A stretch of DNA of 64,000 nucleotides from Holosporales bacterium (GCA_031266135.1 JAISBP010000007.1:617-64616); one strand, 5' to 3'; positions 28,738 through 33,128 are shown, counted from the stretch's first letter. A program made the numbers and translations. The notes: a model not told the origin generated them from the sequence alone.

Positions 28738-30162
28738 TTATTCTGGTGTCTCTGGCTCCCACCCCGCTCGGACTCGGTCTCTCTGCTCCTGGAGCTCGGT
28801 AATAAGCGCATCGAAAGCTGGTATTTGGCCCACCACATTTACCAGAACCTTTGGGTTTTGGTATTTCCGCATATTTAATCTGGGAAGAAATCTTGCGGTT
28901 CTCTGTATTTCTTGCACGATGCTAGTAAATTCCGCTATAGCATCAGGATCTCCTGGACCAATTCTTGTCCGGCAATCCGGCAAATTAATACGATCTTCTA
29001 ATTTAAGATACCATCTTCCATCAGACGCTCTTTCCTTTGATGCATCTCCATAATTGTGATATACGAATGATATTATCTGACGCTTGGATGGACTAAATGG
29101 ATGCTGTGGAGATTGCTGTGCGGTGAAGCTCTTAAACTGTCTAGAATCTTGAATTGGAGGATTAAGCAATATGGTTAGTAATTCAAGTTGCTCCTTTTGA
29201 CCAACTATATGCTCTACTTGTCCCGTAAAGAAGGATATTCGAAGCGAATCCAGTTCTGGAAAACAGGATCTCAAAAAAAGTGTAAAAGGATCTTCTGTTA
29301 GTACTATATTCGCTTGAAGTCTAGGCAAGAATTCACTTAGTTTTGTTTCATCAGAATTAGGAACACATTGAGCTACCGTAGTGAACTCATCAAAAGGTGT
29401 ATCTGAAGGAACCACAGCAAAACCATCTTTCGGATCTCTCGGTGGTTGAAGGATTTGTATCAACCAATCTCGCACATGCGGAGGACACGAACCTAAACGA
29501 TGCTGTGTATACTCAACGCTACCGGGCTCTGGGCCATGTGCCAGCGTTCCCATGATACTGTGGGCCAATTCTAGAATAGCCGGATCAGCTATTTGTTGGC
29601 AATTTATCTGGATATAGCGTTGATGAATAAACCAGTTGTGAGCAGCTGGACAAAAAATGTCAGGAATTACAGAAACCTCGAAATACAGTGCCCCGGCGAC
29701 ATTGGCCAACGCTTCCGGGAGCGTAAAGCGTATTCCATTCCTCTGGGCCTCATGATCCGTTATCACGTGAATTTTGCAGTTCCCGGAGAACAGGTGACAC
29801 CCGAGGAGAAACTCCACAGGGGACAAGCTAGACTTCAGAGCATCCAACTGACCGACACAGTCTGTTAGAGCATTCCCCACAGGTCCATTGCCACCTCCGA
29901 AGGCTATAACGGATTTGATTATGAGTGTTCTAAACGGCCCCCTTTCGTATAGTTTCTTGACGGACTGGTCCTTCAGCAGCCACGTTACCTTTACAGCATC
30001 TGGGTTAACCAACCTAGATTCGTTGACTAGGTTGACTTCGGGGAGAGGAGGCATACCGGCCCGCGGATCCCTGGTAGCCTGTGCCAAGCTCATGCCCCCT
30101 AACATCATGATGACCGTCGACACGATGCCTTTATAGTGGAGCCTCGCTTTATTTAACTTCAT
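28738..30162 (-). CDS. MKLNK-leader secreted protein family, member C (most divergent)
   Basis: 474 aa with the signal peptide MKLNKARLHYKGIVSTVIMMLGGMSLAQA and a C-terminal IGPGDP block shared with the two neighbours. Confidence 0.7.
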   Translation of the reverse strand: MKLNKARLHYKGIVSTVIMMLGGMSLAQATRDPRAGMPPLPEVNLVNESRLVNPDAVKVTWLLKDQSVKKLYERGPFRTLIIKSVIAFGGGNGPVGNALTDCVGQLDALKSSLSPVEFLLGCHLFSGNCKIHVITDHEAQRNGIRFTLPEALANVAGALYFEVSVIPDIFCPAAHNWFIHQRYIQINCQQIADPAILELAHSIMGTLAHGPEPGSVEYTQHRLGSCPPHVRDWLIQILQPPRDPKDGFAVVPSDTPFDEFTTVAQCVPNSDETKLSEFLPRLQANIVLTEDPFTLFLRSCFPELDSLRISFFTGQVEHIVGQKEQLELLTILLNPPIQDSRQFKSFTAQQSPQHPFSPSKRQIISFVYHNYGDASKERASDGRWYLKLEDRINLPDCRTRIGPGDPDAIAEFTSIVQEIQRTARFLPRLNMRKYQNPKVLVNVVGQIPAFDALITELQEQRDRVRAGWEPETPE

Positions 30163-30214
30163 ATCCTGTCCTCCTTTAGCATTCTAAATGAACATTACAT
30201 TTTAATTTTGCAAT

Positions 30215-30244
30215 GATATAACACTTTTCTATTTCTCCCGTCTA
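30215..30244 (-). promoter_or_regulatory. putative sigma70-type promoter of family member C
   Basis: On the coding strand, TAGACG-N18-TATATC. The block is conserved upstream of all three paralogues. AGGAGG RBS before the ATG. Confidence 0.4.
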
Positions 30245-30283
30245 GCCTCTTATGAATCTTTTGTAGAGGCGCTGCATCCGCAT

Positions 30284-31609
30284 TCAATGACTAAGCGGGA
30301 GTCTTTCCCTTTTGTGCTGAGACTCAGCGAAAGAAGCGCAGTACTTCGGAATTTTAGCTGGATTTCCTGGCCCGATAATGAGTTTTCCATCTGGTGAAAT
30401 AAAAGGACTAGTAACGACTAAGACCGCCATACTTTGTTGATTACCAGAGGAATCCGCCGGACCAAATATGGTTTCGGATTCTACCTTACCCATGCAATGT
30501 ACCCCGACGGCGATGGCCAATCTGACACAAGTGCTGAAAGGATTCCCGGATGTCTGTTCCCGAATCCACCGAGCATATTCCCTTCCTGTGGCCAATGCCT
30601 CATCGTCTGAATGCAGAGGGTTGCCGGCGAATATCCTGTGAATAATCACCTGGTCTTCCGGTTTAGGTATTGTTAGCGACCCACCCTCGAGCCAGCACAT
30701 GGCAACCAAATCTGGTCTGTCATAGCAGGCCTTATAATGGAACGGGAGAGTGAGTGGCTGAGGTTGGATATAGGGTAGGCCAGTTACACAAGGTCGGCTA
30801 GGAATCTCCGGTAACTCTTGGTCTTCTGAGGATCCTTCTTCCACTGGTTCTGGCGGTTCTTCTTCCTGGGTCGAGATGTGTAGGATCTGGAAGATGCCGT
30901 CCTCGGTGGGCGGCTGGAACCGCGGTAGAGGGACTGGGACCTCATCCTGCTGCGCAGCCCGTGCTACAGCCGCCATGCGTTCAAGCAGCGCTGGGACCCA
31001 CCTCGGAGCTTTTCTGGCGGCGGCGGTCAGGATCGGAGAGGTGTCAGGCGCCATCTCTCCCCCACCTGCTAAATTGAATAAGACTGCCGATCCTAATTCT
31101 GCCATTTCTAGGGGGCATAGCTCGTCTGCCCTCCTGCTCGTTTCGAATCTGATGTTTTGTATGCGGGCCATTACCTGGGCTACTTCTGGCGAGAACCCGA
31201 AAAACCTAATCTTTTCTGCCTGCACAGCCTGTGCAACTGTGGGTGGGAATACTAATTGGACGTAACTAGGGATTCTACCTGATCCACGGGAAAACCCTAA
31301 TTCGTATGTCGGAGTTGTGAGGAACCCCGCTATGAATTTGTCTTTCGGGGTCAGGCCGAGATCCTCGGTCTGGGCACGCCTGCCACTGGGGATAAGGGTG
31401 TAAGCCATGGGTTGCGTGGAGTCTGCCAGAGTCGATATCAGCCCGTGAAGGAATCGTCCTCCTGGCTCTGGATATTGAATCAAGTTAGGGCTCCCCAGTG
31501 GCTGGTATAATACCAGTGCAGCATGCGCTTGTGTTATTTCCAACAACATCATGAAGATTGCAGATACTATGCCTTTGAAATGGTGGTTCTTCGTTTTATT
31601 TAACTTCAT
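30284..31609 (-). CDS. MKLNK-leader secreted protein family, member B
   Basis: 441 aa. It shares the blocks FLTT, QNIRF.T..ADEL.PL, RAAQQ, CYD.P..V..CW, RIFAGNP, VH.MG, VLV.TSP and GPGNP with member A. Confidence 0.7.
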   Translation of the reverse strand: MKLNKTKNHHFKGIVSAIFMMLLEITQAHAALVLYQPLGSPNLIQYPEPGGRFLHGLISTLADSTQPMAYTLIPSGRRAQTEDLGLTPKDKFIAGFLTTPTYELGFSRGSGRIPSYVQLVFPPTVAQAVQAEKIRFFGFSPEVAQVMARIQNIRFETSRRADELCPLEMAELGSAVLFNLAGGGEMAPDTSPILTAAARKAPRWVPALLERMAAVARAAQQDEVPVPLPRFQPPTEDGIFQILHISTQEEEPPEPVEEGSSEDQELPEIPSRPCVTGLPYIQPQPLTLPFHYKACYDRPDLVAMCWLEGGSLTIPKPEDQVIIHRIFAGNPLHSDDEALATGREYARWIREQTSGNPFSTCVRLAIAVGVHCMGKVESETIFGPADSSGNQQSMAVLVVTSPFISPDGKLIIGPGNPAKIPKYCASFAESQHKRERLPLSH

Positions 31610-31694: not shown

Positions 31695-31733
31695 GCCTAT
31701 TGTTGGGCTTTGCATGCGCTCTGCGTGGTGTGT

Positions 31734-33044
31734 TCAAGAACTCAGTGTCAGTGGAAGATTTTCCCTAGCTCGTTGGTACCTCTTATGAAGGGCGCAGTAT
31801 CTAATGATTTGGTCTGGATTCCCCGGCCCTAATATGATTTGCCCATCTAGACAAATAATAGGACTAGTAAGGACCAAGACTGACATTCCTTGCGGATGCC
31901 CGGGTGGGGCAGGCTGGGGAGTTAGGATTCGCAATGCAGCTGCTCCCATGCTATGGACAGAAATGGCGAGAGCCACCCGGATCCACGGTTTGATCGGCTG
32001 CTCCAGCGTCTGATTTATAATCAATCTCCGGTATTCCAGATTGTCAGCATCTTCCGAGAACATGGGGCTGCCAGCGAGAATCCTGAATAGTGTGCTCTGA
32101 TCCTCTGCTGGGATTACTGCTGCATCTTTTCCCTGGATCCAGCATGCGACCACTGACTCCGGGTCATCAAAGCATTTCTTGAATTCTGCCTGGATTGTGG
32201 ACCCGACCGGGCGTATGCCTGGCAGGGGATGGAGACCAGGTAACTCGCCTTCTTCGTCTGATCTTGGATCGGCTGTTTTGTAAAAGGCGATGGCCCCTGT
32301 CAATACCTGCATGATGATCTGGTCCGTGGCCCGCTGACGGACCACTTGCTGGGCTGTACCTTGCTGGGCTGCTCTTATTTTTGCCAACATTGTCTCCAAC
32401 GTCTCTATAGCGCTGGTCGGAGTTCTTCTGGAAACCGATATCAATTGCGGAACTGATCCTGTGCGCACACTACACTCATTTCCTAAACAGTGTATTATTT
32501 GCTCCGCGAACTCTGACAGGCCCAGGGGCATTAGTTCGTCTGCTTCTTGTACGGTCTGATACCTTATGTTCTGCCTGTCTGAAATTGCTCGAACCTCTTG
32601 GTATGTGTATCCGGGCATCAGGATTGTCGACATACCGAAGGTCTGCTCGAGGATCCCCGTGAATATTATCACGAGCGAGTATCGCTCTCGGTGCGTCTCT
32701 CTGCTTTCTCCTATTTGGTATGCATCGGTGGTAAGGAACCATCCTATCAATTGCTCCCGGGGAGATAGTTCGTTGGCTCTGGCCTGTAACAATGCGTATC
32801 GGGCTTTCAGGGTACGCCTGGGAGATAGGGTTATATCTCCTAGCGCGGAGATCATATCACGAAAGCACTGTCCTTCTGGGTATGGGACCAAGGTAGGGTC
32901 CCCCGGCCGTTGATATACCACTGGATACTGTATCTCTGCGTCCGGATCCAGTGTAGCTTGCCCCGAGCTTATACACCACAACATCATGAAGACTGCAGAT
33001 ACTATACCTTTGAAATGGTGGTTCTTCGTTTTATTTAACTTCAT
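31734..33044 (-). CDS. MKLNK-leader secreted protein family, member A
   Basis: 436 aa. Its first roughly 67 nt are almost identical to member B. The conserved blocks are as listed for member B. Confidence 0.7.
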   Translation of the reverse strand: MKLNKTKNHHFKGIVSAVFMMLWCISSGQATLDPDAEIQYPVVYQRPGDPTLVPYPEGQCFRDMISALGDITLSPRRTLKARYALLQARANELSPREQLIGWFLTTDAYQIGESRETHRERYSLVIIFTGILEQTFGMSTILMPGYTYQEVRAISDRQNIRYQTVQEADELMPLGLSEFAEQIIHCLGNECSVRTGSVPQLISVSRRTPTSAIETLETMLAKIRAAQQGTAQQVVRQRATDQIIMQVLTGAIAFYKTADPRSDEEGELPGLHPLPGIRPVGSTIQAEFKKCFDDPESVVACWIQGKDAAVIPAEDQSTLFRILAGSPMFSEDADNLEYRRLIINQTLEQPIKPWIRVALAISVHSMGAAALRILTPQPAPPGHPQGMSVLVLTSPIICLDGQIILGPGNPDQIIRYCALHKRYQRARENLPLTLSS

Positions 33045-33098
33045 TTTCTGATCTCCTCTATTATGTTTTTGCAGATCATATACTTTTGAATCTGCAAT

Positions 33099-33128
33099 TA
33101 TATAACACGCTTACAATTGTTTTGTAAA
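33099..33128 (-). promoter_or_regulatory. putative sigma70-type promoter of family member A
   Basis: On the coding strand, TTTACA-N18-TATATA(AT). Confidence 0.4.

Follow-up and report, generated by a model that had tools for sequence, protein, structure and literature searches.

What are the three adjacent genes that lie between dapE and gyrA in a Holosporales genome, encode proteins of no recognised family, and yet resemble one another? They occur in a stretch of 64,000 nucleotides (nt) from Holosporales bacterium (GCA_031266135.1 JAISBP010000007.1:617-64616), referred to here as the window. An initial annotation, made from the sequence alone, described them as tandem paralogues of a secreted protein family, each with its own promoter and leader, and proposed a Cys-His-Asp arrangement of catalytic residues. 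Our analysis shows that the triplet (genes A, B and C) consists of three tandem paralogues, as judged from their sequences, and that the family is an orphan, found only in the window among the public proteins searched. The family is new in sequence and familiar in kind, a set of orphan exported paralogues in an endosymbiont, and not a new mechanism; its mildly unusual feature is a leader that is better conserved than the protein that follows it.

The open reading frame (ORF) listing of the window has the genes at the place first described, as three intact minus-strand ORFs arranged head to tail and separated by gaps of 124 and 121 nt. The triplet sits on a 69.5-kb contig of a metagenome-assembled genome (MAG) named ‘Holosporales bacterium’, where NCBI calls all three products hypothetical proteins (A, LBJ92_01665, MDR1233842.1; B, LBJ92_01660, MDR1233841.1; C, LBJ92_01655). 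The JGI call of gene A (P0001) has 373 amino acids and begins at an internal Met64, which drops the signal peptide; because the conserved leader matches, the NCBI start, giving 436 amino acids, is the right one. Gene B corresponds to P0002. An independent Logan assembly (SRR14710922), reached via P0003, is 100% identical to positions 18738-31601 of the window. This contig ends at 31601, inside the repeated leader stretch of gene B, a break that is expected where a short-k-mer assembler meets a repeat.

Proteins A and B align over their full length with 36% identity (E 2e-81), and A and C are matched by BLASTP with E 6e-11. The sequence blocks listed earlier for A and B were found in the alignment (FLTT, QNIR[YF], ADEL.PL, RAAQQ, C[FY]D.P..V..CW, RI[LF]AG.P, VH.MG, M.VLV.TSP, DG..I.GPGNP and YCA), with small corrections to two of them: in QNIR..T..ADEL the T and ADEL are separated by three residues and not two, and in V.LAI.VH.MG the LAI part is out of register in B. 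The alignment also confirms that protein C keeps the leader and an IGPGDP motif. The leader start reported as common to the three proteins is present in each, with the correction that the leader of C (MKLNKARLHYKGIVS) is one residue shorter.

The similarity of C to the other two members is concentrated in two regions, with 61% identity over 36 residues in the leader and 22% over some 140 residues in the C-terminal part. For this second region tblastn within the window gave E 6.6e-7 and 5.6e-4, and a shuffle test of the C-terminal domains (C-domains) gave z = 17.6 for A-C and 12.2 for B-C. In the same test the mature N-terminal domain (N-domain) of C had no detectable similarity to those of A and B (z = 0.4 and -0.3). 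The sole hint of a common N-domain origin is a colinear 26-residue patch, LSPxExLxG, with 38% identity and E 0.11. The architecture of the family is a leader, a variable N-domain of about 200-260 residues, a Pro/Glu-rich low-confidence linker and a conserved C-domain of about 140 residues. No similarity between N-domain and C-domain was found by hhalign or BLAST, and an internal duplication was rejected on these grounds. A tblastn search of the 64-kb window found no fourth copy or fragment of the triplet genes.

Conservation also extends upstream of the coding regions, where about 90 nt ahead of each ATG can be aligned among A, B and C. The block GTGTTATAT(A/C)ATTGCA(G/A)A occurs in the window only at the three triplet genes (3 matches against 0.09 expected, with 0 of 100 shuffles giving 3). 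It contains TG-n-TATATA, or TATATC in C, located 18 nt downstream of TTTACA in A and of TAGACG in B and C, while an alternative hexamer, TATAAT (TATCAT in C), needs a 20-nt spacer. This second hexamer overlaps the first at 33102-33097 in A, 31668-31663 in B and 30218-30213 in C. A 5' untranslated region (UTR) of about 55 nt follows, and then AGGAG, 8 nt ahead of the ATG in all three genes. Alignments and a pattern search bear out the promoter-like block, N18 spacing, leader and AGGAG that had been noticed at each gene, and the cassette of B was also seen as repeat families D3 and D4. A simple sigma-70 consensus scanner flagged neither register at the three conserved blocks, because the -10 hexamer at 18-nt spacing is TATATA or TATATC. 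Judging from the conservation, a sigma-70-like promoter at each gene is probable, as a candidate in two possible registers. In the spacers that we read and around the promoters, neither a homopolymer run nor a flanking inverted repeat was seen that would point to phase variation. An RNA element in the conserved leader was considered and rejected, since Rfam gave nothing at gathering thresholds or at E<=1 and RNAalifold gave -5 kcal/mol without covariation.

Between A and B, identity varies sharply from segment to segment of this 5' region: 18/18 in the -10 block (16/18 when either is compared with C), 22/34 in the UTR, 11/13 from the Shine-Dalgarno sequence to the ATG, 64/66 in nt 1-66 of the coding sequence and 34/84 in nt 67-150. 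Over codons 1-22, the proportions of synonymous (pS) and nonsynonymous (pN) differences between A and B are 0.09 and 0.02, versus 0.69 and 0.43 in the remainder. Comparison of the same codons with C gives a saturated pS of 0.61-0.69 and a pN of 0.12-0.14, with a pN of 0.55-0.58 in the remainder. For the whole stretch that encodes the signal peptide of C, conservation is confined to the protein level (pS 0.66-0.69, pN 0.12-0.16). The low pN of codons 1-22 therefore indicates strong protein-level constraint on the leader in all three copies. In addition, the leaders of A and B are homogenised at the nucleotide level: given a background identity of 0.70, 64/66 matches would arise with a probability of 2.5e-8. 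The likeliest cause is a short tract of gene conversion, about 70 nt long, with a function at the nucleotide level as the alternative.

The leaders have the layout of export signals. Those of A and C divide into n-, h- and c-regions as MKLNKTKNHHFK-GIVSAVFMMLWCIS-SGQA/T and MKLNKARLHYK-GIVSTVIMMLGGMSL-AQA/T, and the h- and c-regions of B read …GIVSAIFMMLLEIT-QAHA/A, where the slash marks the predicted cleavage site. The first 12 residues have a net charge of +4, about 14 residues make up the h-region, and the cleavage sites GQA, AHA and AQA place Ala at position -1 in all three proteins and a small residue at -3. A charged n-region, an h-region of 7-15 residues and small residues at -3 and -1 are the features of a leader handled by Sec and signal peptidase I, and all of them are found here. 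With cleavage called by rule, from the n/h/c layout and the -3,-1 rule, the 29-30-residue leaders are very probably Sec signal peptides with predicted export and cleavage by signal peptidase I, which agrees with the cleavable-looking signal peptides first reported on all three proteins.

Other routes and destinations find less in these sequences. The lipobox [LVI][ASTVI][GAS]C is absent; the sole leader Cys, in A (LWC-I), stands in a non-lipobox context and does not occur in B or C. The n-regions MKLNKTKNHHFK and MKLNKARLHYK lack RR, and thus a twin-arginine motif (S/T-R-R-x-F-L-K). No transmembrane-like segment is present in the mature parts, whose most hydrophobic 19-mer is a core strand containing Pro, Asp and Gly (MSVLVLTSPIICLDGQIIL). 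The C-termini (…LPLTLSS, …LPLSH and …GWEPETPE) do not end in the aromatic beta-signal residue of an outer-membrane beta-barrel or autotransporter; a barrel is further unsupported by structure models that are mixed alpha/beta with long helices, and Pfam finds no barrel domain.

Compared with standard signal peptides of the Sec/signal peptidase I type, the triplet leaders are alike in their charged n-region, 14-residue h-region and small -3 and -1 residues. They differ in that conservation over residues 1-22 far exceeds that of the mature protein, and those of A and B differ also in the conservation of synonymous sites (pS 0.09 versus 0.69). High conservation is unusual for a disposable signal peptide. 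It would fit an uncleaved signal anchor that tethers the proteins to the inner membrane facing the periplasm, with the conserved leader acting as a functional membrane segment or targeting signal. We consider such an anchor improbable, as the hydrophobic core is short (about 14 residues), moderate in hydrophobicity and interrupted by Glu and Gln in B, and a classical A-x-A-type site with an invariant Ala falls in the same alignment column in 3/3 proteins.

The mature parts of A and B have pN 0.43 and pS 0.69, for a Jukes-Cantor dN/dS of about 0.33 that is rough because dS is saturated. The triplet genes are real and under moderate purifying constraint. The best-conserved mature part is the C-domain (41% identity, pN 0.37), compared with 32% and 0.44 in the N-domain. 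Mature proteins have isoelectric points of 5.3-5.9, with 7.6-10.7% Pro and 2.0-3.6% Lys.

Database searches returned nothing beyond the triplet itself. Scans of the three proteins against Pfam and NCBIfam (E<=1) gave nothing relevant and a PADLOC scan nothing above noise, and sequence-profile searches of the PDB with full-length proteins and the C-domain gave only irrelevant matches at E of about 1. A word-indexed search of 5.8 billion clusters recovered only the window's own proteins, and an exhaustive search with a three-sequence profile against 1.84 billion representatives, which stand for about 15 billion proteins, brought back the three window proteins and no others. Peptide-pattern scans of genome and metagenome contig collections found no relative. 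The absence of a known family, noted at the outset, thus holds across Pfam, NCBIfam, PADLOC, the PDB and the exhaustive profile search. Alignment searches with the leader or the C-domain only were uninformative, as they also missed the window's own proteins. The 18-nt promoter block was matched at >=120 loci (at least that number) in a metagenome scan, and these were dismissed as chance matches to a single 18-mer without protein or cassette similarity.

Tracing by dapE led to other MAGs of the Holosporales as the nearest relatives (60-62% identical in dapE). Synteny with the window is lacking at their dapE loci, and neither gyrA, rlpA nor a member of the triplet family lies near dapE in them. 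One of these MAGs, Gsp477, derives from a Glyptotermes (lower termite) sample (PMC11707648), and it is the sole related MAG with a traced source.

Base composition offers a clue to expression and also raises the question of origin. GC content is 0.51-0.52 in A and B, 0.46 in C and about 0.41 in the window. At third codon positions (GC3) it is 0.53 in A, 0.52 in B and 0.42 in C, with 0.54-0.60 in gyrA, secA, dnaK and lepA and 0.32-0.45 in most window ORFs. Across the three codon positions, A and B show the order GC1 > GC3 > GC2, as do most other window genes with the exceptions of gyrA and secA, and in C GC2 and GC3 are nearly equal. High expression of A and B would agree with these GC3 values, as far as codon composition can indicate it. 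A recently acquired foreign island would explain both the raised GC and the missing relatives, which extend to the dapE-bearing contigs of related MAGs, where neither the family nor the dapE flanks are seen. Although such an origin is compatible with the reading we favour below, we regard it as very unlikely: integrase, transposase, tRNA and repeat boundary are all absent at the flanks, gyrA, secA, dnaK and lepA in the window are equally GC-rich, C has ordinary GC, and no donor-like homologue emerged from the exhaustive profile search.

The proposal of a papain-like or transglutaminase-like Cys-His-Asp arrangement is not supported. The Cys-His distances given for it (63, 66 and 69 residues) are correct as values, but the comparison joined cysteines that are not homologous. 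In the alignments, the column of the C[FY]D block that holds C291 of A and C295 of B contains the SCF cysteine of C (C300), and the ACW cysteine of A (C301) and MCW cysteine of B (C305) align with a Ser in C. Invariant in the three proteins are a Cys (A291/B295/C300), a His (A364/B371/C369) and an Asp (A400/B407/C396), accompanied by an invariant GPG[ND]P.

These residues could make the C-domain a secreted hydrolase or transferase of the papain, transglutaminase or deamidase type, with C291, H364 and D400 of A as the triad. In common with clan CA enzymes, including bacterial effector deamidases and proteases, the triplet has the order Cys-His-Asp in 3/3 proteins and an aromatic residue after the Cys (CF, CY and CF), and Cys and His are rare residues. 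Coincidence is not unlikely, however: 22/158 columns of the C-domain alignment are invariant among three sequences, and with 4 Cys, 3 His and about 9 Asp in the C-domain of A it is unsurprising that each type should have one invariant position. In A and B the invariant Cys is also 10 residues from a second conserved Cys (C-x9-C), and this pair may equally be a disulfide in an exported protein.

Structure prediction adds no support for an enzyme. AlphaFold2, run on the three-sequence alignment, reached a predicted local distance difference test (pLDDT) score of 50.2 for full-length A and 59.7 for the C-domain alone, with values of 60-80 for the C-domain within the full-length model. Both models agree, at low confidence, on a helix, two strands, three helices, three strands and a long helix. 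A papain-like core starts its long helix with the Cys and carries the His and an Asp or Asn on neighbouring strands. The low-confidence models have the Cys in a loop or closing the first short helix at its C-terminal end, the His in a loop after the third helix and the Asp in the third strand, 27-36 residues on, a context and a His-Asp spacing across two strands that do not support papain-like geometry. Foldseek searches of the PDB with both models found nothing at E<=0.001 and no protease or transglutaminase fold; the only papain-like entries were coronavirus PLpro at E>2 and probability 0.02. PAS/PYP-like matches of the full model (probability <=0.28) were dropped because they did not recur with the domain model. 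With no profile, PDB-sequence or fold match to a clan-CA or transglutaminase family, in models with a pLDDT of 50-60, we consider catalysis of this type improbable.

What, then, would the proteins do? According to one account, the Holosporales are obligate symbionts of eukaryotes, mostly protists (PMC11909080), and the source bacterium is probably an intracellular symbiont. Our best explanation, held with middling confidence, is an orphan family of soluble proteins, restricted to its lineage and exported by Sec, in an uncultured member of the Holosporales, with a conserved cassette joined to diverging mature parts. The array would have arisen by tandem duplication of the whole unit, promoter included, after which the copies would have diverged to synonymous saturation while retaining the cassette. 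Each copy would be transcribed from its own candidate promoter under common control, and its product exported by the predicted Sec pathway, cut after GQA, AHA or AQA and released into the periplasm. From there, by analogy, the proteins may cross the outer membrane and act at the interface between bacterium and host. If so, the C-domain that all copies share would serve as a common module for binding or anchoring, and the N-domain would be the part that varies and is probably non-catalytic. An MshL-like lipoprotein secretin encoded 15 kb from the triplet is a possible outer-membrane route.

We hold this last part, a host-directed role, more tentatively than the whole, as a possibility suggested by analogy. 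The closest functional analogy is found in Holospora obtusa of the same order, whose periplasm contains proteins of novel sequence: one of 63 kDa, bearing a putative signal peptide, is released into the host, and one of 89 kDa is associated with host-cell invasion (PMC9866348, PMC5911502). The triplet has no sequence homology to either protein in the profile search of 1.84 billion representatives. It also lacks, in Pfam, the D5_N DNA-binding domain that the 63-kDa protein, PRP1, carries, and we found no report that the Holospora genes form a tandem triplet with a common promoter and leader cassette.

A second parallel concerns gene organisation. In the Mycoplasma vlp and vsp systems, paralogues keep the promoter, 5' UTR and signal sequence while their mature parts diverge; the products are lipoproteins with a lipobox and internal tandem repeats, and the promoters carry a phase-variable homopolymer tract. 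The triplet is alike in having a conserved 5' cassette on neighbouring paralogues. It differs in lacking a lipobox, in having no homopolymer seen in its spacers and in conserving the C-terminal domain.

The exported proteins might instead serve the bacterium itself, in a housekeeping or structural role in the envelope or periplasm without direct action on the host. A Sec-type leader would by default deliver them to the periplasm, we recognise no further secretion signal, and their codon usage resembles that of housekeeping genes. Proteins of this kind are normally order-wide, whereas the triplet has no homologue even in MAGs with a 60% identical DapE, and the rapid divergence of the three paralogues suggests a function specific to the lineage and not a core one. 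On balance we judge a housekeeping role unlikely, though less so than any of the other alternatives considered here.

Several points weigh against the exported, possibly host-directed family that we favour. The host-directed role draws only on taxonomy and analogy; with three sequences from one MAG, the conservation statistics are weak; the cleavage call follows from the n/h/c layout and the -3,-1 rule; and the domain picture is provisional because the AlphaFold models are poor (pLDDT 50 and 60). In addition, the lone secretin gene is no proof of a working type II or pilus-type exporter, and the raised GC of A and B could signal foreign origin instead of high expression.

A bolder version can be formulated, in which the leader is a dedicated targeting or regulatory module that sends fast-evolving effectors to one export path, such as the MshL-like secretin, and the C-domain is a new Cys-His-Asp fold acting on host proteins. 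We give it very little weight. If true, an endosymbiont of a protist or of the insect gut would have a new family of effectors designed as ‘fixed cassette, variable payload’.

Obligate intracellular bacteria deal with their hosts largely via lineage-specific exported proteins, and very few of these are known for the Holosporales. The triplet is a clean example, with no homologue in about 15 billion public proteins and a cassette whose conservation exceeds that of the proteins expressed from it. Should these proteins reach the host, they would be candidate symbiosis factors, and the leader could serve as a handle for finding further cargo in the same genome.

Table 1. Positions of the triplet, its parts and other features, counted from the first nucleotide of the window (aa, amino acids; a slash marks predicted cleavage)
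Feature	Coordinates	Strand	Remarks
Gene A	31734-33044	-	436 aa; signal peptide, N-domain, Pro/Glu-rich linker, C-domain
Gene B	30284-31609	-	441 aa; architecture as gene A
Gene C	28738-30162	-	474 aa; leader, own N-domain, homologous C-domain, 45-aa C-terminal extension
Upstream cassette of A	33045-33135	-	TTTACA 33128-33123, 18-nt spacer, TATATA 33104-33099, 5' UTR, AGGAG 33057-33053
Upstream cassette of B	31610-31701	-	TAGACG 31694-31689, TATATA 31670-31665, 5' UTR, AGGAG
Upstream cassette of C	30163-30251	-	TAGACG 30244-30239, TATATC 30220-30215, 5' UTR, AGGAG
Signal-peptide coding part of A	32955-33044	-	MKLNKTKNHHFKGIVSAVFMMLWCISSGQA/T; cleavage motif GQA
Signal-peptide coding part of B	31520-31609	-	…LLEITQAHA/A
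Signal-peptide coding part of C	30076-30162	-	MKLNKARLHYKGIVSTVIMMLGGMSLAQA/T
C-domain of A	31749-32198	-	Residues 283-432; holds C291, H364, D400, GPGNP
C-domain of B	30293-30751	-	Residues 287-439; holds C295, H371, D407, GPGNP
C-domain of C	28879-29289	-	Residues 292-428; holds C300, H369, D396, GPGDP
dapE	27442-28593	+	Peptidase_M20; flanks triplet
gyrA	33230-36055	+	Flanks triplet; directed away from gene A
Lipoprotein with GH5 cellulase domain	35997-37202	+	Pfam E 1.9e-20; directly downstream of gyrA
Lipoprotein secretin	48618-50243	+	Secretin, Secretin_N_2; best NCBIfam match MshL, below curated cut-off
Group II intron	18363-20042	+	Rfam RF02001 (domains D1-D4) at 18363-18540
Palindromic repeat	10890-11040, 37185-37335, 48320-48459, 58382-58533	+	Full copies
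Palindromic repeat	35128-35276, 58093-58236	-	Full copies
Palindromic repeat	17055-17146, 20045-20120, 39032-39090		Partial copies
Second dispersed repeat family	46373-46483, 61189-61299	+	About 110 nt; copies 87-91% identical
Second dispersed repeat family	37417-37532	inverted	As above
Direct repeats	60574-60873/62107-62406		95% identical, ~1.5 kb apart
Direct repeats	60973-61038/62489-62554		98% identical, ~1.5 kb apart
Signal-peptide-like ORFs	1668-2486, 11094-11996, 17516-18154, 40456-42615, 46599-47783, 51056-51688, 62967-63449	-	
Signal-peptide-like ORFs	37843-38493, 42856-43416, 50383-50877, 57002-58063	+	

Besides the triplet, the window encodes further proteins with possible export signals (Table 1). 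The MKLNK leader occurs in 0 of the listed signal-peptide-like ORFs, one of which is a 719-residue coiled-coil protein. Eight of these ORFs had no match in NCBIfam, and six of the eight, also scanned against Pfam, had none there; the ORFs at 1668-2486, 17516-18154 and 62967-63449 were left out of the family scans. Among the ORFs scanned, no other pilus or type II secretion gene adjoins the secretin. The GH5 cellulase domain of one lipoprotein is in keeping with life in a lignocellulose-digesting gut.

The window also carries several kinds of repeats and a group II intron. A dispersed palindromic repeat of about 150 nt, with copies 75-94% identical, would fold as a single long hairpin (-63 kcal/mol, z = -10). 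The gyrA ORF, which stays uninterrupted, contains one copy that adds the peptide …SESDLMRGDTEHRTAAYSDVREDSSTVSTKQKTDYEE…, and the lpxB ORF begins at its 5' end with a partial copy. The repeat resembles Rickettsia palindromic elements, which insert in frame into genes. In the group II intron, the Rfam match is followed by an ORF (18657-20042, 461 amino acids) with RVT_1 and GIIM domains. Near the 3' end of the window, the two pairs of direct repeats suggest a recent tandem duplication.

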